Of a DNA stretch of 64,000 bases, positions 1 through 62,215 are shown piece by piece (positions within the stretch are counted from its first letter, which is position 1; every line of letters starts with the position of its first letter). This DNA is from Acidimicrobiales bacterium (GTDB lineage: Bacteria; Actinomycetota; Acidimicrobiia; Acidimicrobiales; SZUA-35). Both the position numbers and the translations under genes were made by a program. The notes beneath the pieces are model-generated. The model did no database searches, had not been told where the DNA came from, and saw only the letters and a program-made list of their open reading frames with translations. The stretch is from contig CBDCFR010000012.1 in assembly GCA_965216355.1 (NCBI GenBank), positions 1,017,065-1,081,064 on the forward strand, in the 5' to 3' direction.

Positions 1-900
1 GGCGTAGAGGCACTGAGCATAGCGATGAAGGGCATCGGCCAACGTCTCGACGTTGGATCCTGCCCGGGCGTTGACGACTGACTGGCGGGCATAGTCGACG
101 GCGTCACCCGTGAGCCCCGCCAGGCGATAGGCCTCGGCCAGATCATCACAGACTACGGCTATGCCCCGCGCCGAGCCATCGACCGATCTGAATGTGTCCA
201 AGGCCTGGCGATACGACGCGATGGCGGCCGGCAGGTCACCGAGACACATTCGGACGTAGGCCAGATTGTTGTCGATGGCCGCAACCATCAACAGCTGATC
301 GTGTTCGGCCGCCAATGCCGACGCCCGCCTGTACAGACGCTCAGCAGTGCGAACTTCACCGAGGAACAAGCAGCCAAGACCACGATTGGCAATCGCTCGA
401 GCCAATACCACCTGCTCGTCGGGCACGCCTTCAAGTTCCACAATGCTTTCATCCAGCAACGCGCATCCGTCATGTACTCGGCCTTCGTGAAGCCGGATCA
501 TGCCAAGCTGAGCCTTGGCCACCAACGCAATCATTGCCGATTCGCCGGAATCATCTGAGGTGCCCGCTTCGGCCGAAGGGGATATGCCGCCGTCGATCAG
601 AACGAGAAGCCGATCGACGGCATCGCTTAAGCGCCCGGAAGCGCTCTCGGCCGCGGCCAGGCTTATTGCTATTCGAGCGTTGAGCAAGTCGGAGCCAACC
701 GTGAGTGCCCGCTCAAGGTCGTCGATCGACTCGTCGTTGCGGCCAAGCTCATAAAGGGCCGCACCCCGGGCCCAGAGGCCGGCCGATACCCGATCGGGAT
801 CATTTGATTCACACCACTTTTGGGCCTCGGCCAACCCTTGCGCCGGATCGGCTTTGGCCCGGTCGACGAACCGTCGAGCCTCGGCAGCCAGACTGAGGTC
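1..900 (-). CDS. TPR-repeat protein, N-terminal ~300 aa (3' end lies outside the window)
   Basis: Absent from the ORF track because it runs off the window edge. Hand translation of the reverse strand (codon at 900-898 = D) is uninterrupted from nt 1 up to a stop at 1309-1311. It reads DLSLAAEARRFVDRAKADPAQGLAEAQKWCESNDPDRVSAGLWARGAALYELGRNDESIDDLERALTVGSDLL ... LAEAYRLAGLTGDAVDYARQSVVNARAGSNVETLADALHRYAQCLYA. The recurring helix-turn-helix pattern with A/L/Y/G spacing is typical of TPR. The start codon is unresolved: there is no ATG or GTG near 900, and the nearest candidates are TTG at 963 or 834. Confidence 0.6.
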
Positions 901-901
901 G

Positions 902-3001
902 CTAATTTTCGTTGACCACAGTTCCGAGACGAGGGATTCGACCGAGGACTGGACGGTCGACAAGCTCGTACACCGCCTGATCGAGCACGTGCTTTTGAGC
1001 CCGTCGCACGTCGGCCGCAGCGGCTATCGCGTTGCCCTCGTCATCGAACCGGGCCTGCCGATATTGCTCAGCCGCCCGCGCCGCAATGGCGCCCACGACA
1101 GCCGGCGTCGAGAACGACGTGCCGCTCCAAGTAACCCTGGACGGCTCCGTCGTTCCTCTCACGCCGGGAGCAAGGTCGGGCCGCTGATCCGGGAGAGCGG
1201 GATCGTCCGGGTTGAACCCGATGAACAGACTGTTGGGCGCCGGGAGTTCCGGCGGCGGATCACCATGGGGTGGTGGATAAAGGAAATCGATCCACCACTC
1301 CTGCGGATTCAGGGCGTCGGAAGCAGGATCGGACCGGATCGGATCGGCCGCTGCGGGCATCGATGCTTCGATATCGACCCCCGGGGCACAGGTGTCGACC
1401 CAACCCCCGTGATTTGAGAACCACGCCGGGCCTTGCGGCCCGATCGCACCGACGGAGATGGCTTGTCGCAACGCCGCCGGCCACATCGGACGGCAACTGG
1501 CGTCGTTGCCAGCTGAGGCGATGATGAGCCAGCCGGCGTCCCGCATCTTCTCCACCACCGCTTGGGTGGCGGGCGCCGGGTTGTTGTCGAAGGTATAGGC
1601 CCCGAGCGAGAGGTTGACGATGCCGACCCGGTCGTGGTCTTTCCAGGCTTCGAAGATCTGATGCAGGCGCACAGCAACTATTGGGTCGACGCTGGCACCG
1701 TAGTTGGTCATCACGGGAGCGCTGAAGATTTCGGCGTCGGGAGCGATCCGAGCGATGATGTCTTGGATGAAGTAGTGGTGGGCGAATGCCGGATCAATCT
1801 TCACGTTGGCGTTGAGATCGCTCTGGAAGCGGGGTGGGTTTTCCGGGTCGAGGCCAAAAAACCGGGGGTAACGTTTGCTTATCTCATTTTCGGCGAACGA
1901 CGCGAAGCCGTTAACCAATTCCTGGGTCCAGGTGTAGGTGTCGAGGATAAACACCGGGATCTGGTCTCTACCCGGATCGGCCCCAATCGGACCCCGCGGA
2001 CCGATCTGTTGCGCCAACTGAAGAGGTTGTGGCGGCTCCGGACTGTCGACCAGGCGGAAACTTGCCACTTCCGGCGGGTTAAACGATCGACCCTTGCCTC
2101 CAGCATGGTTTGCAGCGCATCCGCAGCAGCCCGACCCGGACATGGAACCTGTGGACGGGTTTGCAAACGAAAACGGGTTAGCGAAGGAGAACGGGTTGGC
2201 GAACGAAAACGGATTGGCAAAGGAGAAGGGGTTAGCAAACGAAAACGGATTGGCGAACGAAAACGGGCTAGCCGTACTCAGGCCGGTCTGTTCGATACCG
2301 CTGGTGGAGAAAAGTACATATGACACATCGGCGGTGAATCCGGCCCTGCGCAGCGCGTCCGCGAGTGAAATCTCCGGCTCGAAATCGCCATCGGCCACGT
2401 GTCGGTAAGCACCTATGTCGCCGTCGTAATAGCGCAGCGAGACCTGGGCGAAACCGCGCTCTTCGATGCGAGCCCGCAGTTCCTCGGATGTGGCGGCCAT
2501 CGCTTCGGCGCCGACCGCAGTGACTGCTTCCGAGCTCAACCAGGTTTCGGTGGCAGTCAGCAGTTGTTGAGCCTCCGCCAGTTCCTCCGCCGGATCGAGC
2601 GCAGCCGCTTCGGGTACCTCGGCGTACTGGTCCGGCGTTGGTTCGATCGGTTCAGCTTTGGAAATGCCGGTTTCCCCCGCCACGTCAATTTCATTCTGGA
2701 GTTCGGCGATTCGGCGGACAAGCCCATCACAACTCTCAAGAGCGGCTCGAACGGTGGACTCTCTCGGGTCGATCGACGGATAGCGATCTACGATCATGCC
2801 GAGCATCACGTCTTCGTCGGCTAGCTCGTAGCGCTGTTTGAGGAACGCGTTCAAGCGGTCCCATTGCTGTTCGAAGGAGTTGCCGGGTGTTGGTTCGTCG
2901 AACACGACGGTGACCGAGTCCTTCAAGTAGGCGGTTGGTCGTCCGTCCCGATCTTGGGTGAAAACAAAATCTTCCCAGCCGTCTCTGGTCCCTGTAGCCA
3001 T
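902..3001 (-). CDS. Cytoplasmic S8 (subtilisin-family) serine peptidase with an N-terminal unknown domain and a 6x FSFANP repeat
   Basis: ORF 902..3031 begins at TTG 3031. ATG 3001 has GGGGAG 6 nt upstream, so I prefer it as the start. Subtilase motifs in the C-terminal half: IPVFILDTY (Asp), HHYFIQDIIARIAPDAEI (His, compare HGTHVAGIIA..AP.A.I), IVNLSLGAY (oxyanion Asn), WSGTSFSTPAVVGAIA (Ser). The N-terminus (MATGTRDGWEDFVF) has no hydrophobic signal peptide or TM segment. Confidence 0.85.
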   Translation of the reverse strand: MATGTRDGWEDFVFTQDRDGRPTAYLKDSVTVVFDEPTPGNSFEQQWDRLNAFLKQRYELADEDVMLGMIVDRYPSIDPRESTVRAALESCDGLVRRIAELQNEIDVAGETGISKAEPIEPTPDQYAEVPEAAALDPAEELAEAQQLLTATETWLSSEAVTAVGAEAMAATSEELRARIEERGFAQVSLRYYDGDIGAYRHVADGDFEPEISLADALRRAGFTADVSYVLFSTSGIEQTGLSTASPFSFANPFSFANPFSFANPFSFANPFSFANPFSFANPSTGSMSGSGCCGCAANHAGGKGRSFNPPEVASFRLVDSPEPPQPLQLAQQIGPRGPIGADPGRDQIPVFILDTYTWTQELVNGFASFAENEISKRYPRFFGLDPENPPRFQSDLNANVKIDPAFAHHYFIQDIIARIAPDAEIFSAPVMTNYGASVDPIVAVRLHQIFEAWKDHDRVGIVNLSLGAYTFDNNPAPATQAVVEKMRDAGWLIIASAGNDASCRPMWPAALRQAISVGAIGPQGPAWFSNHGGWVDTCAPGVDIEASMPAAADPIRSDPASDALNPQEWWIDFLYPPPHGDPPPELPAPNSLFIGFNPDDPALPDQRPDLAPGVRGTTEPSRVTWSGTSFSTPAVVGAIAARAAEQYRQARFDDEGNAIAAAADVRRAQKHVLDQAVYELVDRPVLGRIPRLGTVVNEN
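2156..2263 (-). repeat. Six tandem 18-nt units encoding FSFANP x6 (in-frame, inside the S8 peptidase gene)
   Basis: Reverse-strand codons, unit by unit: ttt tcg ttc gcc aat ccg / ttt tcg ttt gct aac ccc / ttc tcc ttt gcc aat ccg / ttt tcg ttc gcc aac ccg / ttc tcc ttc gct aac ccg / ttt tcg ttt gca aac ccg. All differences between units are synonymous. Confidence 0.95.
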
Positions 3002-3276: not shown

Positions 3277-4344
3277 TCAGTAGCGGCTGGAGAAACGTCG
3301 CTGGTCGGCCTGGATCTCGTGGAACACCTCGGGGATCTGCTCCCGGTAGAGCGACCACGGGTAGATCGTGGGACGGTCGGCGATGCGTTCGAACACGTCG
3401 GTCATCATCTGCGATGTGCCGTGGCTGTCGGCGCTCACGGCTAAGGCGTAGGCGTTCAGCACATGTAGCGATTCGGTGGGTGCCGGGTTGGGGGTGGCGC
3501 GCAGGAACGACTCCAGGGCCGCCACCAACTCCTGCACCACCTCGCCATGATTCAGATAAGGCGCTAGGTTGGCGCCGCCGTCGTTGAGCAGACCCTGTTC
3601 AATGTGGGCCACCGGGAGTGTCACCCGAGCGGCCGAATCGGGTGGCGCCTCCTGTTCAACCCAACGGGCGAAGTCGAACGTTGCGTCCTGCGATCCGCCC
3701 CACTTCTCGGTGAGACCCTCGATGTATTCACGGCAGGCGTCGGGGCGGAACGGATGACGGCTGTGGGCGTTGTCGAAACGTTGTCGCAACTCCTCCAGAC
3801 GCACACCGAGACCGCGGCCGCTGATCAGCAGGAACACCCACGGATCCGACAGGCTGGGGCGCTCACGGACAATGTCGTACAGATCACGCTCGGCCTGCTT
3901 CAGCGCGTCCTGGTAGTCGGACACCACCATCTCGCCCTCACGGTCGAGCTGCTCCTGGGAGAGCCGGTTCAGGTTCTCGGCGTCGGCCACCTTGGATTCG
4001 TAGGCCGCCCTGGCCTCAAACGCGTCGCGGATCAGGACTGCGGCCTGGTAGGAGCGAGCCCGGGGCGAGCCGGCAACGTCGGCCCAGCGGGCAAACACGA
4101 TGGGCTCTATGCCGACCAACTGGCTGGTGATGATCGAAGAGAACAGCCACGCTTTCGGCGATGCGTCCAGGAAGGCCTCGATCCGTCGCCAGTCGCCGTC
4201 CATCAGATGACGGTAGGCGTTGCGCAGCTCGACGTCGGCCAGAAACGGGTCGAAACGGTCGGTACGTGTTGAGAGAACCGGACTCGCCGCATGACTGCCT
4301 CTGTGGCTGGCTGTATGACTGCCTGTATGACTATCCGCCACCAT
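3277..4344 (-). CDS. Hypothetical alpha-helical protein (no family recognised with confidence)
   Basis: 355-aa ORF with an ATG start and GGAGAGG immediately upstream. Composition is coding-like, and it is co-directional with the S8 and TPR genes. The N-terminus has a short GSHTASH-like repeat. I recognised no catalytic motifs. Confidence 0.7.
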   Translation of the reverse strand: MVADSHTGSHTASHRGSHAASPVLSTRTDRFDPFLADVELRNAYRHLMDGDWRRIEAFLDASPKAWLFSSIITSQLVGIEPIVFARWADVAGSPRARSYQAAVLIRDAFEARAAYESKVADAENLNRLSQEQLDREGEMVVSDYQDALKQAERDLYDIVRERPSLSDPWVFLLISGRGLGVRLEELRQRFDNAHSRHPFRPDACREYIEGLTEKWGGSQDATFDFARWVEQEAPPDSAARVTLPVAHIEQGLLNDGGANLAPYLNHGEVVQELVAALESFLRATPNPAPTESLHVLNAYALAVSADSHGTSQMMTDVFERIADRPTIYPWSLYREQIPEVFHEIQADQRRFSSRY

Positions 4345-4385
4345 CCTCTCCAGGGTATCGATCGCCGAGGCCGTACGCTGAAGAG

Positions 4386-6317
4386 ATGATGTCGATGCAC
4401 ATGCTTTGGCCCCGCGACGCCAAGTCGGTGGAGGGCGCCCGTATCGAGCGGGCCGCCGCAGCCCGGGTGTGGCGGTTCGCCCGGCCCTACCGCCGTCAAG
4501 TGATCGGATTCCTCTCCGCCGTGATCGTGCAGGCGGTGTTGGGCCTGGTGCCTCCCCTTCTCTTCGGCAGCATCATCGACCGGGCCATCCCCAACCAGGA
4601 CCGTCGACTGCTCGTTATCTTTGCTGCTGCGATCGTCGCCGCCGCTTTGTTTCAAGGGATCGTCGGACTCGGTGAACGCTACTGGTCGTCACGTATTGGC
4701 GAGGGCGTGATCTACGACCTGCGCGTCGCCTTATTCGACCACGTGCAACAGCTCCCGTTGGCCTTCTTCACCCGCACTCAAACCGGCACGCTCACCAATC
4801 GGCTGAACAACGACGTGATCGGCGCTCAGCGGGCGCTCACCACCACGCTCGGCACGGTGGTTTCCAATGTGATCACCCTGGTCACCACGCTGATCGCCAT
4901 GTTCATTCTCGAATGGCGGCTGACCCTCCTCGCCCTGATTCTCACCCCGTTCTTCGTGCTTCCCTATCGACGCATCGGCCAGGTCCAACAGACCATCACC
5001 CGTGAGGCCATGGACCTCAACGCCTCCATGAATTCCACGATGACCGAACGGTTCAACGTGGCCGGCGCCCTGCTCGTCAAGTTGTTCGGTCGAGGTGGCG
5101 ACGAGCTTTCGCTGTTCTCCGAGCGGGCCGCCGGCGTGCGCGACATCGGCGTGCGATCGGCCATCTTCACCCGTGGTTTCATGACCGTGCTGTCACTGCT
5201 CGGCGCCATCGGTACCGCGTTGGTCTACGGCCTCGGCGGGCTGTTCGCCATCAACGGCACGTTCTCGGTTGGTGAGTTGGCAGCGATGGGTTTGCTGGTG
5301 GGCCGTATCTACATGCCGCTCACCGGTTTGACCAACGCCCGCATCGATGTGCTTACCGCACTCGTCTCGTTCGACCGGGTGTTTGAGGTGCTCGACGCAG
5401 CCAGTCCTTTGGTGGATGCCGACGATGCTCGCCCGCTGCCGTCGCCCCAGGGGCGAATCGAGTTCCGAGACGTGACGTTCCGCTACCCCCGCTCCGACGA
5501 ACTGATCGTGCCCGGACTGGAGACGCCCGGAGCGGCTGAGGCCGGCGACGGCGAGGCCGACCTCGCCCCGATTCTCGACGGCGTGAGCTTCACGATCGAG
5601 CCCGGTCAACTGGTGGCGGTGGTGGGTCCGTCCGGGGCGGGCAAGACCACGCTCACGTCGCTGATTCCCCGACTCTATGACGTGACCGGCGGTGCGGTCC
5701 TCGTCGATGACAACGATGTGCGAGAGCTCACTCAGGAGTCCCTGCGTTCGGCGATCGGCGTGGTGGTACAGGACCCGCATCTGTTCCACGAGTCGATCGG
5801 CGACAACCTGCGCTACGCCAAACCCGACGCCACCGAGGCCGAGCTTGTGGAGGTGTGTCGGGCCGCCCAGATCTACGACGTGATCCAGGCGCTGCCCGCC
5901 GGGTTCGACACCGTGGTCGGCGAGCGCGGCTACCGCATGTCGGGTGGTGAGAAACAGCGGCTGTCGATCGCCCGCATGTTGTTGAAGGATCCGTCGATGG
6001 TCATCCTCGACGAGGCCACCAGCCACCTCGATTCTGAGAACGAAGCGCAGGTACAGGAGGCTTTGGCCCGGGCGCTTGAGGGACGCACGTCGGTGGTGAT
6101 CGCCCACCGCTTGTCCACCATCACCGAGGCCGACCAGATCCTGGTGCTCGACGACGGCCACCTCGTCGAGTGTGGTCGCCACGAAGACCTCTTGTCTCGG
6201 GGTGGTTTGTACGCCGACCTCTATCACCTGCTGGTGCGCGATGGCGCCGACGGCGGTGGCGGAGTGACCTCCAACGGCGGCGCGCCCGACGGCGACGTCG
6301 AACCGGCGTTGAACTAG
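4386..6317 (+). CDS. ABC transporter, fused permease/ATP-binding exporter (MsbA/type-I exporter family)
   Basis: Six-TM N-terminal half, then Walker A GPSGAGKTT, ABC signature MSGGEKQR and Walker B MVILDEATS. The ORF-track start at 4161 overlaps the divergent gene 3277..4344. The in-frame ATG at 4386 (MMSMHMLWPRD) removes that overlap. Confidence 0.9.
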   Translation: MMSMHMLWPRDAKSVEGARIERAAAARVWRFARPYRRQVIGFLSAVIVQAVLGLVPPLLFGSIIDRAIPNQDRRLLVIFAAAIVAAALFQGIVGLGERYWSSRIGEGVIYDLRVALFDHVQQLPLAFFTRTQTGTLTNRLNNDVIGAQRALTTTLGTVVSNVITLVTTLIAMFILEWRLTLLALILTPFFVLPYRRIGQVQQTITREAMDLNASMNSTMTERFNVAGALLVKLFGRGGDELSLFSERAAGVRDIGVRSAIFTRGFMTVLSLLGAIGTALVYGLGGLFAINGTFSVGELAAMGLLVGRIYMPLTGLTNARIDVLTALVSFDRVFEVLDAASPLVDADDARPLPSPQGRIEFRDVTFRYPRSDELIVPGLETPGAAEAGDGEADLAPILDGVSFTIEPGQLVAVVGPSGAGKTTLTSLIPRLYDVTGGAVLVDDNDVRELTQESLRSAIGVVVQDPHLFHESIGDNLRYAKPDATEAELVEVCRAAQIYDVIQALPAGFDTVVGERGYRMSGGEKQRLSIARMLLKDPSMVILDEATSHLDSENEAQVQEALARALEGRTSVVIAHRLSTITEADQILVLDDGHLVECGRHEDLLSRGGLYADLYHLLVRDGADGGGGVTSNGGAPDGDVEPALN

Positions 6318-6820: not shown

Positions 6821-8029
6821 TTGAAATCGACATGCATGATCGGCGGTGATCGAGGCGGAGACCTGGTGCGGTTGAATGAAGCTCTACGCGATGTGCGTGA
6901 GGTGCCCTTGTCGTGTCTCAGCGCGGTTGAGCTAGCTGAACGTGCTGTCGTCTTGGAAGAGGCAGCGGCGCAGTTGGATGCTGCTCGTTGCGCCACCGTG
7001 GCTGCTGCGTCTGAAGCCGTCGAAGGTCCTGGAGCGTTTAAGGCACTGGGGTTTCGTCACGCCGTTGATTTCATTGTCGATGCGTTTGGGTCCGATGCCC
7101 GGGATATTCGCAAGCTGGATCGTGTCGGCCGGTGGCTATTAGACTTCCCGGTGTTCGCGGAGGCGTTTGGCGATGGGGTGTTGACGCATCGGCATATCAC
7201 GGAGTTGCGGAGCATCGACAAACCAAAGGTGCATCACCAGTTGATCGACTCGCAGGAAATGCTGGTCGACGCCGCCAGGGAGTTGGACTTCCGGGATTTC
7301 GTGAATGTGTGCGCCTATTGGCTGAACGCCGCCGACCCTGACGGTGATGAACCCGTCGAGCAGTCCGCCAAGTCCGGACTCACCTACAAAAAGAACTCTG
7401 ACGGGTCCGTATCAGGGAGGTTCCGGTTCGATGCGCTGACCGGGCAGGCGTTCCGCACCCTGTCGGATCAAGAGACCCAGCGGCTGTTCCGTCAAGACAC
7501 CGAAGACGGGGTGAAACGCTCCCAGGGCAGCCGTCAAGGCACAGCGTTGTTGAATCTGATGACTCGTGGTTCGGCCAAGGGTGGGAATTCACAGATCACG
7601 CCACTCGTTCATGTGGTGTTGGGTGCGGCGTTGGCTGAAAACCTGGCTGAACAACTGGCTGGTGAAACAACCGAGCAGGTTGAGCCGTCGTTTGATGACA
7701 TCAACAGGCGCTGCGAGTTGATTGACGGCACACCGATCCACCCGAAACAAGCCGCAGTAGCGATGGCAGCGGGGATGCTACGCCGGATCGTGTTCGACGA
7801 ACACTCCCATCCAATCGATGTCGCCGCCAAAGCCCGCGGCTTTCCCACATGGATGAAACAAACGCTACTCGTACGGGCAAGAGGGCGATGCCAGATACCA
7901 GGATGTGACGCGCCGTTCGCGTGGCTTCAAGCTGATCACGTCCAACCCCACTCAAAGGGTGGGCCAACCAAACTCGCCAACGGGCAGATCCTTTGCGATC
8001 CGCACAATAAGTGGAAGGAGGCGAGCTGA
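6821..8029 (+). CDS. DUF222-type HNH endonuclease (actinobacterial 13E12-repeat-like family)
   Basis: C-terminal HNH motif CQIPGCDAPFAWLQADHVQPHSKGGPTKLANGQILCDPHNKWKE. The long helical N-terminal region (LDAARCATVAAASEA..) is typical of DUF222. By eye it has somewhat lower GC than its neighbours. Confidence 0.8.
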   Translation: MKSTCMIGGDRGGDLVRLNEALRDVREVPLSCLSAVELAERAVVLEEAAAQLDAARCATVAAASEAVEGPGAFKALGFRHAVDFIVDAFGSDARDIRKLDRVGRWLLDFPVFAEAFGDGVLTHRHITELRSIDKPKVHHQLIDSQEMLVDAARELDFRDFVNVCAYWLNAADPDGDEPVEQSAKSGLTYKKNSDGSVSGRFRFDALTGQAFRTLSDQETQRLFRQDTEDGVKRSQGSRQGTALLNLMTRGSAKGGNSQITPLVHVVLGAALAENLAEQLAGETTEQVEPSFDDINRRCELIDGTPIHPKQAAVAMAAGMLRRIVFDEHSHPIDVAAKARGFPTWMKQTLLVRARGRCQIPGCDAPFAWLQADHVQPHSKGGPTKLANGQILCDPHNKWKEAS

Positions 8030-13246: not shown

Positions 13247-16200
13247 TCAGCCGTTCCAGGTTCCCTGCGACGACACCCGGCCCTGCAGCTCGGGCGGTGG
13301 GAAGGCACCCGGCGGATCCACGTCTTCAGTAGGTAGCGCGGCGCCGGGGCAAGCACCGATGGCGTCACCGGAAGCCGTACGTTCCCAACAGGCCGATAGG
13401 GAGTTGTCGGTACCTTCAACCAGCGAGATCGACTGGCCTGGCGCTGCACCGGCCAGTCGGGCCTCGGCCGACGGGTCCCAGATACCAAGAGCAGCCGGCG
13501 GTCGGCCGGCGATGTGGGCGTTGCCGGTGCCGTCGTCCCAGGCCACGAACGCCACCAGCAAACCGTCGGCGTCCCAGAACCAAAGGTCATCGCCACTGTT
13601 TTCGAGTGCCTCCCAGTTTGAGTTCGGCCCAGGAGGGAAGCCATAGTCGACGCCACGGAACCAGAGTGCATAGGGGATCGCCGGCCGCAGCGAACCGTCC
13701 TGCAGGAAATACTGCGTCCAGGATGGGCGGCGAATCGGGGCGGTGATGAACTGACCGGGACTGAACAGCGTCGGTTGCGTGAACGCCTGATTGATTCGCC
13801 CGGTATGTTCAGGCAGGTAGGGCGGAACACCAGTGTGGAAGGCGAAGTCGGTCTGCACCGAGGGATCCGGCGTGTCGGTGAGATAGAAGTTCTCGATGTC
13901 GAACGCCGCCGCGCCCACGTTGGAGAACTCGATGAACTCGTCCATCAGGTACGCAGCAAACGGTGCTGCCGTATCGTATGGATCTGATTCGGCGTATAAC
14001 ACCTCGGAGATCACGATGTTGCCGGCGTGGGGCGATAGGCCGATCGGGTCGATGGTCAACGTGAACGTGGTCGTTGTTGCTGCGCCCTGATCGTCGGTTA
14101 CCTGGACGAGGATGGGCCATACGGTGTCGAGTTCGGCCAACACCGGTGTGCCACTCAGCGTGGCCGTCCCGGCAAGGAAGTCGACATCGAGCGTCATGGA
14201 TCCCGGGAATATCCCGGCGGTCACGTCGACGACAAAGCCATCGACGTCGGAGAACGGGAACGTCATGGTAAAGGGAACGTTGACGTAGGCGGTTTGGTCG
14301 GGAATCGGGGACAGGATCGGCGGGTCGTTCGTCGGGTTGACCGTGACGTTGATGGTGCCGGTGGCCGTGTTGCCGGCGGTGTCGGATATCACGTACACGA
14401 TTGTGTCGGAGGTGGTTTCGCTACCGTCGTGAGTGTAGGTGGCCGTCGTGCCGTCGGTGGTGGTGGAAATCGAGTTCGCGCCCGGGTCGGAGATCAGCGT
14501 GATCGTCAAGGCGTCACCTTCAGGATCGGTGTGCAGCGCTGTCAGGTCGGCCGACGTGATCGATCCCCCCTCGTCGACGGTCAACGACGACGTGGCCGGC
14601 GCCGGAGCCTCGTTCACGTCGTTGACGTTGATCGTGATCGTTTCCGTGACGATGTGCACGCCGTCGGAGACCTCAACGGTCAACGTGTAGGTCGACGCGG
14701 CCTCAAAGTCGAGCGGCCCGGTAGTGGTGATCTCGCCGGTTGTCGGAGCGACGGTGAACTCGCCCAATGGATCGCCGGCAGTGACTGTGTACGACAGCGG
14801 TTGGCCCTCAGGGTCGGACGCCGTCACGAACACCACCGACTGACCGGCGACAAGACCTTCATCGACGGCGCCCGTGCTCGGAGAGGTAATCGGCGGATCG
14901 TTCACCGGGGTTACCGTGACGTTAATCGTTCCAACTGCGATGTTCCCGGCGATATCCGAGATCTCGTACGTGACCGTGTCCGTAGAGGTTTCGGAACCGT
15001 CGTGGGTGTAGGTGACCGTGGTGCCGTCGGTGGTGGCTGAGGTCGAGTTGGCGCCGGCCGACGTGATCGACGTGACCGTAAGGGCATCACCCTCGGGGTC
15101 GGTGTGCAACACGGTTAGATCGGCCGACGTGATCGATCCGCCCTCCGCCACCGCCAACGACGACGTGGCGGGGGCCGGCGCCTCGTTGGCGTCGAGTACT
15201 GAAATCGACACCGTCTGCGAAACCGTGTCCACCCCGTCGGAAACCGCAACGGTCAGGGTGTACGACGAGGTCACCTCAAAATCGAGTGGCGCCGTGGTGG
15301 TCACCTCACCCGTCGTGGCATCAATGGTGAACTCACCCAGCGGATCACCACCGGTGATCGCAAACGTCGGCGCACCACCATCAACATCGGTGACCGCCAC
15401 CGTGCCGATCACCTGACCGGCGGGCAAGTTCTCGGTCACCGAACCCGATAGCGGAGACACCACCGGTGGATCATTCACCGGCGTCACCGTCACATTGATC
15501 GTGCCGACCGCAGTGTTGCCGGCGGTGTCGGTGATGTTGTAGGTGACGGTGTCTGCGCTGGTCTCCGAACCATCGTGGCTATAGGTAACCGTGGCACCGT
15601 CGGTCGTCGTCGACACCGAGTTTGCACCGGGGCCGGTCACCAAGGTCACCGTAAGCGCGTCCCCTTCAGGGTCGGTGTGCAGCGCCGTGAGATCAGCGGA
15701 CGTGGCCGACCCACCCTCGGCCACCGTCAATGATGACGACGCCGGAGCCGGAGCCTCGTTGACATCAAGAACCGTGACGGTGACCGTCTCACCAACCGTG
15801 TTCACACCATCGGACACCTCAACCGTCAGCGTGTAGGTCGGCGTTGCCTCAAAATCAAGCGGCGCGGCGGTGGTGATCTCACCAGTCGTAGGAGCGACAT
15901 TGAACTCACCGAGAGGATCACCACCGGTGATCGCGAAAGACAGCGGCTGGCCCTCAGGATCAGACGCCGCCACAAACACAACCGACTGACCGGCAAGCAG
16001 ATTCTCATCAACCGAGCCTGCGACGGGCGACGTCAACGGCGGGTCGTTCACCGGAGTCACGACCACATTGATGGTGCCCACCGATGTGTTCCCCGCAATG
16101 TCGGAGATCTCATAGGTGACGGTGTCCGACGTCGTCTCGGTACCGTCGTGGGTGTAGGTGACAGTCGTGCCATCGGTAGTAGCGGAGAGCGAGTTGGCAC

Positions 16201-19200
16201 CGGCAGCCGTAACCGACGTGATCGTCAGCACGTCACCTTCCGGGTCGGAATGCAACACCGTCAGATCGGCCGACGTTATAGATCCGCCCTCCGCCACCGT
16301 CAACGACGACGTAGCCGGTCCCGGAGCCTCATTAGCGTCGACTACCGAGACCGACACCGTCTGCGAAACCGTGTCCACTCCATCAGAAACCGAGACGGTC
16401 AGGGTGTACGACGGCGTGGCTTCGAAATCGAGTGGCGCCGTGGTGGTCACCTCGCCTGTCGCCGCATCAATGGTGAACTCACCCAGCGGATCACCACCGG
16501 TGATCGCAAACGTCGGCGCACCACCGTCAACGTCCGACACCGCAACGGTGCCGACAACCTCACCGGCAGGCAGGTTCTCACCAACCGAGCCCGACAACGG
16601 CGACACCACCGGCGGATCGTTCACCGGCGTCACCGTCACATTGATCGTCCCGGTGGCACTATTCCCGGCGGTGTCGGTGATCACGTAGGAAAGCGAGTCG
16701 GATACCGTCTCCGAACCATCGTGGGTGTAGGTGACCGTGCTGCCGTCGGTTGTCGTCGATGCCGAGTTCACACCGACAAAGGAGATCGAGCTGACCGTCA
16801 GGGGATCTCCCTCCGGGTCGGTGTGGAGCGCAGTGAGATCGGCCGATGTGACCGAACCGCCCTCGGCCACCGTCAACGATGACGTGGCCGCAGCGGGAGG
16901 ATCGTTGACATCCAAAACGGTGACGGTAACCGTGTCGGTCACGACGTTCACGCCGTCGGAGATCTCAATTGTTAGCACGTACGACGGTGTGGTCTCGAAG
17001 TCCAACGCCGAAGCGGTTGTTATCTCACCGGCAGCACCCGTGACGGCCAACTGAGCGCCGAGCAGACCTCCAGGACCGGGTACGATGCTGAACTCACCGC
17101 CGGGGTCACCTCCCACGATCGAGAACGACAACGGCTGATCTTCAGGATCGGTGGCCGGCACCACTGTAACCGCGGCGCCGACGGTGTTCTCGGCAACCGT
17201 GGCGGAAATCGGAGTGGTGATCGGTGGATCGTTCACGGGGGTGACCGTGACGGCGATCGAGCCGATGGCCACGTTGCCTGCGCTGTCGGTGATCTCGTAC
17301 GAAATCGAATCGGAGGCGGTTTCCGAGCCGTCGTGCACGTAGGTTATCGCCGAGCCGTCGGTGGTAACCGAGGCCGAGTTGACGCCGGGGAACCGAACCG
17401 ACGAAACGGTGAGCGCATCCCCCTCAGGGTCGGTGTGCAATGCGGTGAGATCGGCCGATGTTATGGAGCCGCCCTCGGCCACGGTGAGCCTCGATGAGGC
17501 GGCTGATGGCGCTTCGTTGACGTCGGCGACCGTGATCGTCACCGTTTGGGACACGGTGTTGACACCGTCGAATACCTCGACGGTCAGGGTGTAGGTCGGG
17601 GTGGTCTCGAAGTCGAGAGGTCGGGTGATGGATATCACGCCCGTGCTGGGATCGATGGTGAAATCACCGCCAGGATCCCCGCCGACGATGGTGAACACCG
17701 GCGCCCCACCGTCGATGTCGGACACGGCCACCGCTCCAACGTCGGCACCGGCCGGCTGGGCCTCATCGGCGAGGCCGGTGAACACCGACAGCACAGGAGG
17801 GTCGTTGATCGGAGTGACGTCGACGGTGGCGGTGGCCGTCGATGTTGCGCCTCGGTCGTCGGTGACCACGTAGGTGAAGGTGTCGGTGCCCGAAAAGTTG
17901 GGAGCTGGGGTGTAGATGATCGTTGTGCGGTCGGCGCTGACCGTCACCGACCCGTTGGTCGGAGCCGATGCCGACGTGATGGTGAAACCGTCGCCGTCGG
18001 GGTCGCTGTCATTGGCCATGGCCCACAGGATCACGGCGGTGTCCTCGGCGGTGGCGATGAAATCGTTGGCCGCTACAGGCCTCAGGTTCCCAACCGTGGT
18101 TGGTGCCGCGGTAGTGGGAGCCACCGTCGTAGTCGTTGTTGTCGTAGTTGTGGTTGGCGGCTGAGTTGTTGTTGTCGTCACCACCACCGTTGTGGTCGTC
18201 GTTGTTGTAGAGGTTGTCGACTGGACCGGAATCGGCTCAGAAGTCACGGGCGTGGCGTCTTCGATGACGATCTCCGGAGTCTCGTCGACAAAGGCGAGAT
18301 CGGGGCTGGGCATGTTGTCATAACCGGCGAAGATTCCGGTGAACGACGCCACCACCGCCGACGTGACCGCAACCGCAGGACCCACGACCGGAGACGGAAC
18401 CGATCCGACGGAACCCGCCAACCAGGCCAGCGGTCCGGCAACCAGGCGAAGCTTTCCGATTCCGATCTGCAGGAAGGCCCTCACCACAGTCGGATCGAAT
18501 TGCGTACCGGCCCCGCGGGCAAGCTCCTGGCGCGCCAGTTCCGCCGACTTGGCCTTCTTATAACTCCGGATGCTGGTCATCACGTCGTAGGCGTCAGCCA
18601 CGGCCGCAATTCGACCGGCCAGCGTGATCTCCTCCCCAGCCCGGTTGTAGGGATAGCCCTTGCCATCCCAACGGCAGTGGTGTTCGTCGACTGCGCCGAG
18701 CCAATCCCCCAGCCACGGTCGGAGCGGTTCGACGTAGCCGTTGCCGGCGGCCGGATGGGTCTGAAGGATGGCCCACTCCTCATCGTTTGGCCGCTCCGGC
18801 TTGTTGAGGATCTCCGCCGGCACATCGAGCTTGCCCATGTCGTGGAGGAGTGCGCCCCACCGGAGGCGAACCCGGTCGTCGTCAGGGAGCTCAAGCTCCT
18901 CGGCAATCAGATCGCAGTAGGCCTGGACTCTTTCGGCGTGACCACGAGTTAGCCGATCATGATCACTCAGCGCATTGACGAGCAGGAGCAGGATCTCGGA
19001 GTGTTTGATCTCGTCGCTCCACTCCCCGCTCTGCCGTGCATCCTCGAGTCGTTGCAACGCCTTGCGACTGTTGGTGGATCGGAGCGACGTCTTGAACCGG
19101 CTGGGAGCCTGATCGGGAAAGATCAACGACAGCCGAAACAATGTGGCAATGGGCAGGTACCGGGTAAGAAATCGATCGGCCAACAGCAGATAGGTGTTGG

Positions 19201-19396
19201 CGACGGTGAACACCGAAATCCACCAGAGGATGGGGTTCATACCAAGACGCCAGGGCGGTGCGGTCCGGGAAATGAAATAGGCCAGGGCAAACGCGCTGAC
19301 TACCGGGGCCAGCAGCAGGAAAATGCGGATGGCAAAAGCGAGACGAGGCCGCGCCGGCCACTCGTTCTCGTTGATTGTTTGTGTAGGGCCGCCCAC
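13247..19396 (-). CDS. Giant membrane-anchored HD-GYP domain / cadherin-repeat / lamin-tail-domain protein (2049 aa)
   Basis: GTG start. Two N-terminal TM helices are followed by HD-GYP motifs (LLHDMGK at ~18835-18850, HHCRWDGKGYP at 18651-18686). Then come hydrophobic segment(s), a Thr-rich linker (~18090-18225), about 14 cadherin/Ig-like domains (DVDGGAP, LDFE, DVNEAP/VNDPP boundaries) and a C-terminal LTD-like motif ISEVLY...DEFIEFSNVGAAAFDIENFYLTD. Confidence 0.9.
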   Translation of the reverse strand: MGGPTQTINENEWPARPRLAFAIRIFLLLAPVVSAFALAYFISRTAPPWRLGMNPILWWISVFTVANTYLLLADRFLTRYLPIATLFRLSLIFPDQAPSRFKTSLRSTNSRKALQRLEDARQSGEWSDEIKHSEILLLLVNALSDHDRLTRGHAERVQAYCDLIAEELELPDDDRVRLRWGALLHDMGKLDVPAEILNKPERPNDEEWAILQTHPAAGNGYVEPLRPWLGDWLGAVDEHHCRWDGKGYPYNRAGEEITLAGRIAAVADAYDVMTSIRSYKKAKSAELARQELARGAGTQFDPTVVRAFLQIGIGKLRLVAGPLAWLAGSVGSVPSPVVGPAVAVTSAVVASFTGIFAGYDNMPSPDLAFVDETPEIVIEDATPVTSEPIPVQSTTSTTTTTTTVVVTTTTTQPPTTTTTTTTTTVAPTTAAPTTVGNLRPVAANDFIATAEDTAVILWAMANDSDPDGDGFTITSASAPTNGSVTVSADRTTIIYTPAPNFSGTDTFTYVVTDDRGATSTATATVDVTPINDPPVLSVFTGLADEAQPAGADVGAVAVSDIDGGAPVFTIVGGDPGGDFTIDPSTGVISITRPLDFETTPTYTLTVEVFDGVNTVSQTVTITVADVNEAPSAASSRLTVAEGGSITSADLTALHTDPEGDALTVSSVRFPGVNSASVTTDGSAITYVHDGSETASDSISYEITDSAGNVAIGSIAVTVTPVNDPPITTPISATVAENTVGAAVTVVPATDPEDQPLSFSIVGGDPGGEFSIVPGPGGLLGAQLAVTGAAGEITTASALDFETTPSYVLTIEISDGVNVVTDTVTVTVLDVNDPPAAATSSLTVAEGGSVTSADLTALHTDPEGDPLTVSSISFVGVNSASTTTDGSTVTYTHDGSETVSDSLSYVITDTAGNSATGTINVTVTPVNDPPVVSPLSGSVGENLPAGEVVGTVAVSDVDGGAPTFAITGGDPLGEFTIDAATGEVTTTAPLDFEATPSYTLTVSVSDGVDTVSQTVSVSVVDANEAPGPATSSLTVAEGGSITSADLTVLHSDPEGDVLTITSVTAAGANSLSATTDGTTVTYTHDGTETTSDTVTYEISDIAGNTSVGTINVVVTPVNDPPLTSPVAGSVDENLLAGQSVVFVAASDPEGQPLSFAITGGDPLGEFNVAPTTGEITTAAPLDFEATPTYTLTVEVSDGVNTVGETVTVTVLDVNEAPAPASSSLTVAEGGSATSADLTALHTDPEGDALTVTLVTGPGANSVSTTTDGATVTYSHDGSETSADTVTYNITDTAGNTAVGTINVTVTPVNDPPVVSPLSGSVTENLPAGQVIGTVAVTDVDGGAPTFAITGGDPLGEFTIDATTGEVTTTAPLDFEVTSSYTLTVAVSDGVDTVSQTVSISVLDANEAPAPATSSLAVAEGGSITSADLTVLHTDPEGDALTVTSITSAGANSTSATTDGTTVTYTHDGSETSTDTVTYEISDIAGNIAVGTINVTVTPVNDPPITSPSTGAVDEGLVAGQSVVFVTASDPEGQPLSYTVTAGDPLGEFTVAPTTGEITTTGPLDFEAASTYTLTVEVSDGVHIVTETITINVNDVNEAPAPATSSLTVDEGGSITSADLTALHTDPEGDALTITLISDPGANSISTTTDGTTATYTHDGSETTSDTIVYVISDTAGNTATGTINVTVNPTNDPPILSPIPDQTAYVNVPFTMTFPFSDVDGFVVDVTAGIFPGSMTLDVDFLAGTATLSGTPVLAELDTVWPILVQVTDDQGAATTTTFTLTIDPIGLSPHAGNIVISEVLYAESDPYDTAAPFAAYLMDEFIEFSNVGAAAFDIENFYLTDTPDPSVQTDFAFHTGVPPYLPEHTGRINQAFTQPTLFSPGQFITAPIRRPSWTQYFLQDGSLRPAIPYALWFRGVDYGFPPGPNSNWEALENSGDDLWFWDADGLLVAFVAWDDGTGNAHIAGRPPAALGIWDPSAEARLAGAAPGQSISLVEGTDNSLSACWERTASGDAIGACPGAALPTEDVDPPGAFPPPELQGRVSSQGTWNG
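14320..18090 (-). repeat. Intragenic tandem domain array: six ~570-610 bp two-domain units, equal to three ~1.15-1.2 kb four-domain super-repeats, plus one leading domain
   Basis: PVNDPP-type boundaries (ggcggatcgttcaccgg variants on the + strand) occur at ~17807, 17222, 16611, 16040, 15470, 14895 and 14320. Alternate units are very similar at the protein level, for example VVSPLSGSVGENLPAGEVVGTVAVSDVDGGAPTFAITGGDPLGEF versus VVSPLSGSVTENLPAGQVIGTVAVTDVDGGAPTFAITGGDPLGEF. Confidence 0.9.
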
Positions 19397-62032: not shown

Positions 62033-62215
62033 CGGAATCCCTCTGTGGTGGTTGCGGGGGCGATATGTCGGCCAACACCTTAATTGAAACGTCAAACAAC
62101 TACCAATTGATGCTGCAGGAAGGATCTATGAACAGACTCGCCAGACTCTAACCGCCATCCGTTCTTGCGGCTCAACCCCCCGAAATACCCGTTGAATCAC
62201 AACTACGATGGCGAT

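Follow-up and report, generated by a model that had tools for sequence, protein, structure and literature searches.

A tandem array of identical short peptides in a family of actinobacterial S8 peptidases: a possible (pseudo)substrate element

The 64,000-nucleotide stretch of Acidimicrobiales DNA analysed here (the window) contains a gene for a subtilase that carries six consecutive copies of the hexapeptide FSFANP, and the question raised by this locus is what such an array does inside a protease. Subtilases and their pro-peptides are textbook enzymes, and we know of no subtilase with a pro-linker made of identical peptides that are maintained by selection. An earlier note on this DNA had favoured a protease fused to its own multi-core peptide substrate, whose units would be excised and perhaps macrocyclised in the manner of the cyanobactin protease PatG, and had kept two other roles in reserve, autoinhibition through a pseudosubstrate tether and docking of the TPR protein encoded next door.

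The window protein, its array and the selection acting on it

The window protein (Table 1) is a member of the peptidase S8 (subtilase) superfamily, both by its match to Peptidase_S8 (Pfam PF00082; aa 416-641, 50.5 bits against a cut-off of 21.8, with 96.4 bits for the relative P0005) and by its catalytic residues. All four of these, D354, H408, N499 and S629, are invariant in a 126-sequence alignment (A3); a 133-sequence alignment (A2) shows no exception at D354 or H408 and a conservation of at least 90% at N499 and S629. The domain closes with a conserved tail ending in RIPRLGTVVN. The start at ATG 3001 is supported by the homologous N-terminus of the protein from locus L003. A crude test found no hydrophobic N-terminal segment in the window protein or in approximately 240 relatives, in agreement with the earlier claim that a signal peptide is absent, and the protein looks cytoplasmic from its sequence. 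No exact copies of it, or of the 355-aa protein encoded upstream, are on record in public assemblies. Its closest relative (P0159, 57% identity) is encoded on a contig that begins just past the array, so the arrays of the two S8 proteins cannot be compared, and the closest relatives are named by their sources only as 'S8 family peptidase' or 'hypothetical protein'.

The six FSFANP units are found exactly where they had been reported (aa 247-282), and in the register used across the family the array reads PFSFAN six times plus a final Pro. Tandem Repeats Finder recovers it with a period of 18 (6.3 copies, 77% matches) and a period of 36 (84% matches). The 18-nt units vary at third codon positions only (TTT/TTC, TCG/TCC, TTC/TTT, GCC/GCT/GCA, AAT/AAC, CCG/CCC), and all of the seven or more nucleotide differences are synonymous, as the earlier note had observed. 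The formal estimate that it had called for gives dN = 0 over 14 non-synonymous sites and puts the synonymous sites close to saturation, at a mean difference of 0.82 per site. For kappa values of 1-4, seven or more random substitutions would all be synonymous with a probability of 3e-5 to 1e-4. Saturated synonymous divergence with dN = 0 is likewise seen in L003 and in L011, where two to four codons are in use at every position of ANPLH x6, and across 43 arrays we counted 174 synonymous and 14 non-synonymous codon variants. The exact peptide is thus under purifying selection. By comparison, the amino-acid sequence of an ordinary Pro-rich linker in a kinase of L003 (DPP[VI]T...) has drifted. Arrays are also expanded by block duplication, the array of L015 being nearly uniform in DNA and that of L034 containing a two-unit higher-order repeat, and one whole array has switched from V to I.

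In AlphaFold2 (AF2) models the array falls below a pLDDT of 50 and its flanks reach 85-98; the segment is predicted to be disordered and not buried, and on this prediction we rejected a buried solenoid. A pentapeptide-repeat beta-helix (A[D/N]LXX, PF00805) was also rejected, given the missing Pfam match, the predicted disorder and the occurrence of 4- and 6-residue periods. The N-domain of typical members is modelled as beta-alpha-beta-beta-alpha-beta at a pLDDT of 89-97, and a long helical insert (approximately aa 43-181) is confined to the subclade of the window and L003 proteins. The longest Foldseek alignments of the P0005 model (440-494 columns) are to unprocessed pro-forms of classical pro-subtilases (3whi, 3vhq, 1r6v, 9ekq), and the predicted fold of the N-domain is pro-peptide-like; searches of eight N-domains against Pfam returned no match at E <= 10, to the I9 pro-peptide or otherwise. 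The end of this domain follows the consensus P-N-H-V-[FLVMY]-F-[AST]-[HDTN], and the logo of the array unit, P-[VFLMA]-[YFW]-[AGS]-[SNT], parallels its V-[FLM]-F-[AS]-[HTN] portion (V-Phi-F-A-H). In several proteins the array adjoins the pro-domain motif in register, as where YVMFAT is followed directly by PVYAN PVYAN.

The Cys cluster that had been noticed after the array is indeed present there. It succeeds the array in the hexapeptide subclade and precedes it in most members of the family, and 163 of 203 proteins have two or more Cys in the stretch that separates the pro-domain motif from the array. The two supposed degenerate echoes of the repeat did not survive alignment. RSFNPP aligns to the family-conserved G-x-R-x-S-S-A-x-P, which is unrelated to the repeat (G302, S306, S307, A308 and P310 are nearly invariant in A3, and the post-array segment of P0005 is modelled at a pLDDT of 84-95), and LFIGFNPDD, near the end of the window-specific insertion, aligns to a family-conserved FFxxFxG...DPD loop ahead of the catalytic Ser.

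Table 1. Features of the S8 gene and of the gene downstream of it, in window coordinates
Feature	Position	Strand	Basis or remark
TPR gene, 5' part, downstream of the S8 gene	1..963	-	Pfam TPR_12, TPR_1, TPR_2; runs off the window
Pro-subtilase (S8) gene, 699 aa, product probably cytoplasmic	902..3001	-	Start ATG 3001, stop 904..902; Pfam
S8 catalytic domain, ~aa 345-699	905..1969	-	Subtilisin fold matches, E ~1e-17
Catalytic D354	1940..1942	-	
Catalytic H408	1778..1780	-	
Oxyanion N499	1505..1507	-	
Catalytic S629	1115..1117	-	
Window-specific low-confidence insertion, ~aa 555-614	1160..1339	-	Before the catalytic Ser; alignment A1, pLDDT < 50
Post-array motif GKGRSFNPP, aa 302-310	2072..2098	-	Family consensus G-x-R-[RK]-S-S-A-R-P
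Cys/His cluster CCGCAANH, aa 292-299	2105..2128	-	Family feature
Tandem array PFSFAN x6 + P (FSFANP x6 = 2263..2156)	2156..2266	-	Tandem Repeats Finder, codon comparison, pLDDT ~30
N-terminal domain, pro-peptide-like by predicted fold, aa 1-240	2282..3001	-	AF2 beta-beta ... beta-alpha-beta; Foldseek to pro-subtilases
Pro-domain C-terminal motif DVSYVLFST, aa 225-233	2303..2329	-	V229, F231 invariant or nearly so; logo from 203 proteins

The family of array-bearing subtilases and its gene neighbours

The family is large and concentrated in Acidimicrobiia: there are 1,967 cluster representatives at E <= 1e-30, and clustering at 90% identity leaves 1,289 clusters or more. Family depth was reached by a search with P0005; a search of a word-indexed database with a 133-sequence profile gave only 11 matches, reflecting the pre-filtering of candidates. 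More than 1,000 uncharacterised actinobacterial relatives bear such arrays. Exact tandem pentapeptides, in 3-16 copies and most often 6-10, are present in 211 of 242 near-full-length relatives, and at least three exact copies are present in 100 of 131 full-length relatives (a smaller set). Nearly all of these arrays (206 of 211) obey a single consensus, [A/G][S/N/T]-P-[V/F/L/M]-[Y/F/W], with one invariant Pro per unit; periods of 4 and 6 residues also occur, the hexapeptide arrays marking the subclade that includes the window protein. The tabulation of homologues suggested earlier finds tandem short peptides at the same position, always after the N-domain and before the S8 domain; their sequence and copy number vary, and the flanks are conserved. 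Many relatives have been labelled Extensin_1 (Pfam PF02095), and these labels are spurious matches to the repeats. We found no curated NCBIfam or Pfam family for the distinctive parts of the protein and no paper describing the family, in a literature of which our coverage was partial, so that a prior description is possible.

The type of unit follows the S8 lineage rather than the type of gene partner: L025, with a TPR-CHAT partner, and L043, with a STAND partner, share the unit ASPMY and 60% identity in the catalytic domain. Mutual information between unit residues and columns of the S8 alignment is dominated by phylogeny. When covariation was assessed at the level of clusters for columns of the S1/S4 region, one S1-loop column gave an uncorrected and phylogeny-confounded p = 0.008 and another was not significant.

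In the window, the TPR gene probably starts at TTG 963, overlapping the 3' end of the S8 gene by 62 nt, and its product matches the N-terminus of the TPR-CHAT protein (912 aa) encoded at L003 with 41% identity; by this homology, it is probably a TPR-CHAT protease gene and the locus is of the TPR-CHAT type. Surroundings were readable for 79 related loci. In 47 of these the neighbour is a TPR-CHAT protease gene, usually together with a gene for an ECF sigma factor, in 22 a cyclase/SARP-STAND-TPR protein is encoded upstream, and overall a TPR-CHAT or STAND-TPR gene adjoins the S8 gene in 69, often overlapping it. Hexapeptides go mostly with TPR-CHAT partners and pentapeptides mostly with STAND-TPR partners. 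S8 relatives at a greater distance have a TPR-CHAT partner and a sigma factor but no array, which indicates that the array is an add-on and not the core of the partnership. The upstream 355-aa ORF (3277..4344) and an ABC exporter (4161..6317) were considered as further components and dismissed, as neither is conserved next to homologues, beside which we also found no conserved modifying enzyme, exporter or transporter. PADLOC identified no defined defence system, returning only weak generic 'subtilase', IetS-like and TPR matches.

Readings of the array

Our preferred reading, to which we assign a probability of roughly 40%, is that the array is a selection-maintained (pseudo)substrate element read by the protein's own S8 cleft, where it would gate or time a cytoplasmic signalling subtilase. 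The protein would be a zymogen in which a disordered linker joins a pro-peptide-like N-domain to an active S8 domain, and each of the 3-16 identical Pro-containing units in the linker would repeat the character of the pro-domain C-terminus (hydrophobic, aromatic, Ala/Gly, small polar, then Pro). Our inference is that the reader of the units is the active site of the same enzyme, to which they would serve either as non-cleavable pseudosubstrates with Pro at P1' or as iterated processing sites that are consumed upon activation, and under both options the array would gate or time the protease. The protease and the TPR protein encoded beside it would form one signalling module, in which the array, or the peptides released from it, may be bound by the TPR domain; by homology the partner here would be a TPR-CHAT protease, alongside an ECF sigma factor, and elsewhere it would be a cyclase/SARP-STAND-TPR protein.

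We favour gating by the array because the units are exact despite saturated synonymous divergence, are a family-wide trait and occupy a constant, disordered position; because the predicted N-domain fold is pro-peptide-like and the longest structural alignments are to unprocessed pro-subtilases; because the unit logo parallels the pro-domain end and abuts it in register in several proteins; and because the catalytic residues are intact, the unit type follows the S8 lineage and TPR genes adjoin the great majority of loci. In classical pro-subtilisins (subtilisin E/BPN', Tk-subtilisin, fervidolysin; I9-type), in which an alpha/beta pro-domain like the one predicted here precedes an S8 domain with Asp/His/Asn/Ser, the C-terminal segment of the pro-domain occupies the substrate cleft, and the pro-domain end of the present family, D/N-H-V-x-x-x-x, recalls the ...EEDHVAHAY of BPN'. 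The present family differs from them in its apparent cytoplasmic location, its lack of a signal peptide and of a sequence-level I9 match, its disordered linker of 60-100 residues with a Cys cluster and exact tandem peptides, and its pairing with TPR signalling genes. Intracellular subtilisins of Bacillus (ISP; PDB 2x8j, 2wv7), whose chains are among the PDB sequence matches (E ~1e-19), are likewise cytoplasmic and owe their regulation to a short N-terminal segment with a Pro: this LIPY/F extension covers the active site uncut and inhibits it, its Pro displacing the scissile bond. ISPs have one short extension with a different motif, however, and no pro-domain, tandem array or TPR partner. Several points count against gating. 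The placement of a unit in the cleft is one that we infer, the pro-peptide assignment comes from a predicted fold, covariation of unit residues with S1/S4-region columns is weak and confounded by phylogeny, and the distant array-less relatives still have a TPR-CHAT partner; moreover, one pseudosubstrate would suffice, and up to 16 exact copies are better explained by a released product or by multivalent binding.

A released product is the premise of the alternative in which, on activation, the S8 domain cuts its own array and frees n identical penta- or hexapeptides as ligands of a TPR sensor, either STAND-cyclase/SARP or TPR-CHAT, as a cell-internal counterpart of the Rap-Phr/RRNPP systems of Firmicutes; we regard this as rather unlikely. 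RRNPP-family TPR receptors bind peptides of 5-7 residues made by subtilisin-type proteases, so that peptide length, mode of production and TPR-domain reception would all be shared. Letter-perfect identity with variable copy number fits a multi-copy product, an aromatic residue followed by Ala/Gly makes a plausible subtilase P1-P1' site, and the adjacent, often overlapping TPR gene and the different partners of penta- and hexapeptides are further points in favour. Against these stand the occurrence of ASPMY with both partner types, the TPR-CHAT partners kept by array-less relatives, and the Pro at P3 and polar residue at P4, which make Y-A a mediocre subtilisin site. RRNPP peptides, moreover, leave the cell by export, are cut outside it and are then taken up again, and their precursors are small separate genes with one or few copies, whereas all components here appear cytoplasmic, protease and precursor form a single protein, and STAND or CHAT proteins serve as partners. 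An elaborated version is a self-contained, cell-internal signalling device in which a cytoplasmic zymogen that bears many copies of a ligand would cut its array into 3-16 identical penta- or hexapeptides, perhaps on a trigger sensed via the Cys/His cluster. The peptides would switch on the neighbouring TPR sensor, be it a regulator of the STAND adenylate cyclase/SARP kind or a TPR-CHAT protease freeing an ECF sigma factor; this we hold to be unlikely. Decidedly unlikely, in our estimation, is that the units stay uncleaved and dock onto the TPR domains of an oligomeric STAND or TPR-CHAT assembly, with avidity recruiting or activating the protease much as adaptor motifs recruit caspases to apoptosome-like platforms. 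The TPR neighbours and the disordered, accessible array suit such docking, identical units would be needed if each binds an identical TPR groove, and the usual copy numbers would lie within the range of STAND oligomers; yet the unit tracks the S8 lineage and not the partner type, array-less relatives still pair with TPR-CHAT proteins, and the likeness of the unit to the pro-domain C-terminus is left unexplained.

Cleavage by another protease, whether the partner CHAT or a foreign one such as that of a phage, would turn the array into a tripwire whose iterated sites make release of S8 from the pro-domain sensitive and hard to evade. The array does lie exactly at the junction of pro-domain and catalytic domain, a TPR-CHAT gene is often adjacent, and there is a precedent in the type III-E CRISPR Craspase (TPR-CHAT Csx29, Csx30, CASP-sigma), where a TPR-CHAT protease is likewise encoded with an ECF-type sigma factor and proteolysis of a partner protein relieves inhibition of that factor (PMC10028731). 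The present loci, however, contain no CRISPR genes and have as third component an S8 pro-protease with an array, not Csx30/Csx31; the 22 loci with only a cyclase/SARP-STAND-TPR protein have no CHAT protease, and PADLOC matched only generic models. We consider the tripwire very unlikely. The multi-core RiPP precursor put forward in the earlier note, from which a secreted or bioactive product would be excised and perhaps macrocyclised, fares very poorly. In its favour are tandem identical 'cores' of variable number between conserved flanks, the invariant Pro and the intact catalytic residues. PatA/PatG proteases likewise process tandem short cores (in the PatE precursor), and a Pro or heterocycle at the core end matters for PatG. 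The PatA/PatG model (NCBIfam TIGR03895), however, scores only 35.1 bits for the window protein and 45.5 bits for P0005 against a cut-off of 421; substrate and enzyme here form one polypeptide; the conserved neighbours are regulators, with no conserved modifying enzyme, exporter or immunity gene; and related loci show no separate precursor or recognition sequences, no follower, and no heterocyclase, oxidase or prenyltransferase neighbours. General RiPP precursors combine a hypervariable core with a conserved leader or follower and co-localised modifying enzymes, whereas the units of this family keep one consensus. Least probable of all is a flexible elastic spacer kept uniform by unequal crossing-over and read by nothing sequence-specific. 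Disorder and the evidence for block duplication would suit such a spacer, but saturated synonymous divergence at dN = 0 in three arrays, the family-wide excess of synonymous variants and the amino-acid drift of the ordinary Pro-rich linker in the L003 kinase speak against it. Of the earlier interpretation, then, the selection, the variable tandem repeats, the unburied segment and the cytoplasmic look have held up and the PatG/RiPP lead has not; both of its fallbacks fit better, the pseudosubstrate tether through the resemblance of the units to the pro-domain C-terminal motif, which they can abut in register, and TPR docking through the adjacent TPR partners.

Actinobacterial S8 domains are also found in the mycosins of type VII secretion. 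The mycosin model (TIGR03921) is the top NCBIfam match of P0005, at 104 bits against a cut-off of 278.75, and the second match of the window protein (38 bits) behind QhpE (41.5 bits); unlike mycosins, the present proteins have no signal peptide, C-terminal membrane anchor or nearby ESX genes.

Significance

The array-bearing subtilases form a large and poorly named family, concentrated in the abundant but little-studied environmental Acidimicrobiia and coupled by gene order to two classes of signalling proteins with largely uncharacterised inputs, namely the TPR-CHAT proteases found with an ECF sigma factor and the cyclase/SARP-STAND-TPR proteins. A single recombinant protein, compared with its Ser-to-Ala mutant, would allow a direct test of our reading. 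Were the self-contained device to prove correct, it would be the intracellular counterpart of RRNPP quorum sensing, amplified stoichiometrically by its own design and spread across Acidimicrobiia and other Actinomycetota. Should the array serve as a gate, timer or ligand store, it would represent a new mode of intracellular protease regulation, and it might show what is recognised by the TPR sensors of STAND and CHAT proteins in bacteria.

The protease gene of the window and its peptide array

The S8 protease ORF near the start of the window encodes a protein in which Peptidase_S8 (aa 416-641) is the sole Pfam domain recognised and whose N-terminus is free of a hydrophobic segment. Its six FSFANP copies lie exactly where the earlier note had placed them; in the register of the family, they read as PFSFAN ×6 plus a final P. 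Among the six 18-nt units, differences are confined to third codon positions, and Tandem Repeats Finder reported a period of 18 with 77% nucleotide matches, a period of 36 being slightly better. A Nei-Gojobori-style count gave dN = 0 and 0.82 synonymous differences per synonymous site, near saturation, and the array needs at least seven substitutions, the probability of all of them being synonymous lying between 3e-5 and 1e-4; the suggested selection on the exact peptide is thus upheld. Two segments that had been taken for degenerate echoes of the repeat, RSFNPP and LFIGFNPDD, proved to be conserved family motifs bearing no relation to it.

Coordinates of features in the window and in two related loci (L001 and L003, the latter that of the best relative)
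Feature	Sequence	Position	Strand	Remarks
S8 protease ORF	window	902..3001	-	699 aa; ATG start backed by homologous L003 N-terminus
FSFANP ×6	window	2263..2156	-	aa 247-282 of the S8 protein
Cys/His cluster CCGCAANH	window	2105..2128	-	after the array, as in the window's subclade
Conserved C-terminal tail	window	905..940	-	...P-x-L-x-R-I-P-x-L-G-T-V-V-N plus 1-2 residues to the end; family-wide
TPR gene 3' of the S8 gene	window	TTG start 963		TPR repeats; overlaps S8 3' end; runs off the window
HNH-like ORF	window	6821..8029	+	402 aa; end motif ...CQIPGCD...ADHVQPH...CDPHN
HD-domain ORF	window	13247..19396	-	2,049 aa; HD/HD_5 phosphohydrolase domain (aa 139-304), about ten cadherin-like/Big_9 domains
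RHS-repeat protein	window	53474..62095	-	2,873 aa; PKD, DUF11 and DUF7507 domains; polymorphic-toxin type
Ser/Thr kinase	L003	15979..19059	+	1,026 aa; two genes 3' of TPR-CHAT, after the sigma factor
TPR-CHAT gene beside P0003	L001	8376..11068	-	three ORFs, split by apparent frameshifts

Elsewhere in the window, the HD-domain ORF is odd in joining a cytoplasmic-type enzyme domain to extracellular adhesin repeats, and the HNH-like product resembles in its sequence a DUF222/HNH endonuclease, genes for which are common in actinobacteria.

Breadth of the family and turnover of the arrays

An initial homologue search returned ten matches only, six of which are built alike: the N-domain leads to a Cys cluster and then to exact tandem pentapeptides (ANPFS, ANPFF, ATPVH, ASPVY and GNPLY), and the S8 domain closes with ...LGTVVN. 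When 1.84 billion cluster representatives were searched with a profile, 1,967 proteins were recovered at E ≤ 1e-30, and at least three exact pentapeptides were present in 100 of 131 near-full-length proteins, mostly top matches of that search. A search seeded with P0005, a compact central member, recovered 1,289 clusters at E ≤ 1e-20, the best 120 of which carry just the source names 'S8 family peptidase', 'subtilase' or 'hypothetical protein'. Among all near-full-length proteins collected, exact pentapeptide arrays of 3-16 copies were found in 211 of 242; the homologues, which the earlier note had proposed checking for tandem peptides, do carry them in varying sequence and copy number, and the array is a family trait. 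The logo of the 211 arrays is [A167 G31 S7]-[S114 N63 T21]-P-[V127 F28 L20 A15 M11]-[Y149 F12 W8 R8 H7]. The window's closest relatives bear hexapeptides (ANPATF ×6 in L003, PHPASF ×5 in L004, FANPAT ×7 in L005, FPNPGA ×9 in L008, PVMSGN ×8 in L009).

Distinct variant codons in the 43 arrays with DNA comprised 174 synonymous vs 14 non-synonymous, the latter confined to units one residue off consensus, mostly at array edges. From the two-unit higher-order repeat of L034, the recently expanded appearance of the L015 array, the change of nearly the whole array from PVYAN to PIYAN between the orthologous L015 and L034, and the 2-4 different codons at every position of ANPLH ×6 in L011, it follows that arrays turn over by block duplication and that in old arrays just silent changes survive. 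The C-terminal end of the L003 kinase is an imperfect Pro-rich DPP[VI]T repeat that, unlike the exact arrays, drifts in amino acids, an ordinary linker that provides a contrast to them.

The 1.7-kb metagenomic contig of P0159 (L082), the closest relative at 57% identity, starts exactly at the Cys cluster, just past the expected array position; short-read assemblies may break at arrays, so that databases could list too few members and give those listed in truncated form. P0003 as called has ~420 spurious N-terminal residues from the opposite strand of its neighbouring split TPR-CHAT gene, and both are probably assembly or annotation artefacts.

Protein anatomy and genomic partners

The AlphaFold2 model of P0005 (120+ homologues; mean pLDDT 85, pTM 0.85) comprises a beta-alpha-beta-beta-alpha-beta N-domain (aa 47-127, pLDDT 89-97), an array lacking secondary structure (aa 147-178, pLDDT < 50), and a confidently modelled post-array segment and S8 domain. 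The array and flanks of the window protein (aa 236-313) behave likewise at pLDDT ~30; its N-domain carries a helical insert, and a second, disordered insertion precedes the catalytic Ser. Foldseek matched subtilisins at E ~1e-17, and the longest alignments were with proteins in their unprocessed pro-form, namely pro-subtilisin E (3whi), pro-Tk-subtilisin (3vhq), fervidolysin (1r6v) and CylA (9ekq). These matches fit an I9-like pro-domain, for which a Pfam I9 sequence match was not obtained. Catalytic Asp354, His408, Asn499 and Ser629 are invariant in a 126-sequence alignment; in one of 133 sequences, Asp and His again show no variation, with Asn and Ser conserved to 90% or more. The catalytic domain is that of an ordinary S8 member, and none of the curated subfamily thresholds was reached.

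The predicted pro-domain closes with a motif conserved strongly across members, P-N-H-V-[FLVMY]-F-[AST]-[HDTN], and a unit in the register P-[VFLMA]-[YFW]-[AGS]-[SNT] is of the same character; several proteins have the array directly after this motif and in register with it (YVMFAT|PVYAN..., YVLFAH|PVYAN..., YVYFAG|PSFFGN...). Between motif and array, 163 of 203 members have 2-7 clustered Cys residues (3-5 in most), often accompanied by His. The Cys/His cluster has the family-wide consensus H-C-x-x-C-C-C-G-P-H-P, accompanies the array in ~80% of members, and stands before or after it depending on subclade; it may serve in metal binding or redox chemistry. Conserved free C-terminal tails, such as the one tabulated, are a motif type bound by some TPR domains.

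The window TPR product shares 41% identity with the N-terminal part of a TPR-CHAT protein of 912 aa (CHAT being a protease domain), the gene for which comes after the L003 S8 gene and is followed by one for an ECF-type sigma factor. Scanning a single genome of each species gave 79 loci, mostly from Acidimicrobiia MAGs plus some other Actinomycetota. A TPR-CHAT gene lies within 5 kb in 47 of these, usually with a sigma factor; in 22, a STAND-type adenylate/guanylate-cyclase (or BTAD/SARP)-ATPase-TPR protein is encoded immediately upstream, often overlapping; and ten have neither partner, four of them on contigs of ~2-3 kb. Despite a bias of pentapeptides towards STAND and of hexapeptides towards TPR-CHAT partners, unit type tracks S8 lineage: L025 and L043, with a CHAT and a STAND partner respectively, both have ASPMY and are 60% identical in the catalytic domain. 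Arrays are missing from more distant S8 relatives that have a CHAT partner and sigma factor. PADLOC matched the window locus to no system, and the 355-aa ORF upstream of the S8 gene and the ABC exporter of the window were rejected as system parts, neither being a conserved neighbour.

How the array may be read

In classical pro-subtilisins, the pro-peptide tail sits in the substrate cleft, which is why we infer that the units could be read by the S8 domain's own cleft. Aligned as Φ(P4)-aromatic(P3)-Ala/Gly(P2)-Ser/Asn/Thr(P1)|Pro(P1'), a unit would fit the subtilisin S4 and S2 subsites and, since Pro falls at P1', would act as a non-cleavable pseudosubstrate, the same logic as that of the LIPY/F extension of Bacillus intracellular subtilisins. 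In the alternative register ...Pro-Φ-Tyr|Ala..., units could instead be cut and identical peptides released. The further reading of the protein as an intracellular generator of peptide signals that feed TPR sensors is, in our view, unlikely. Unit residues covaried weakly with the S1/S4-region columns of the S8 alignment, and the signal was entangled with phylogeny: one column gave p = 0.008, uncorrected, and another gave no significant association. Letter-perfect identity in up to 16 copies argues that each unit is read individually, which leaves room for two models that make the TPR partner a second reader: one in which it binds the released peptides as ligands and one in which it binds the units as a multivalent docking array. 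The lead idea of the earlier note, a RiPP/PatG-type multi-core precursor, is the least supported: the PatA/PatG model scores about a tenth of its cut-off, the units follow one consensus rather than being hypervariable, and the conserved neighbourhood is without peptide-modifying or exporting genes.

A characterised analogue of the TPR-CHAT and ECF sigma pairing is Craspase, in which Csx29 cuts Csx30 and relieves inhibition of CASP-sigma (PMC10028731). Work on bacterial conflict systems has also pointed out caspase-like proteases accompanied by ECF sigma and TPR genes (PMC8195603); peptide arrays in an S8 protein are mentioned in neither paper. Provisionally, given incomplete literature coverage, we found no prior description of a pro-linker with a tandem peptide array maintained by selection, of the accompanying Cys cluster, or of the fixed TPR-CHAT/sigma or STAND-TPR partnership. 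Taken together, these findings support a cytoplasmic zymogen that belongs to a protease-TPR signalling module and has, as its pro-linker, strongly selected tandem copies of the tail of its pro-domain.
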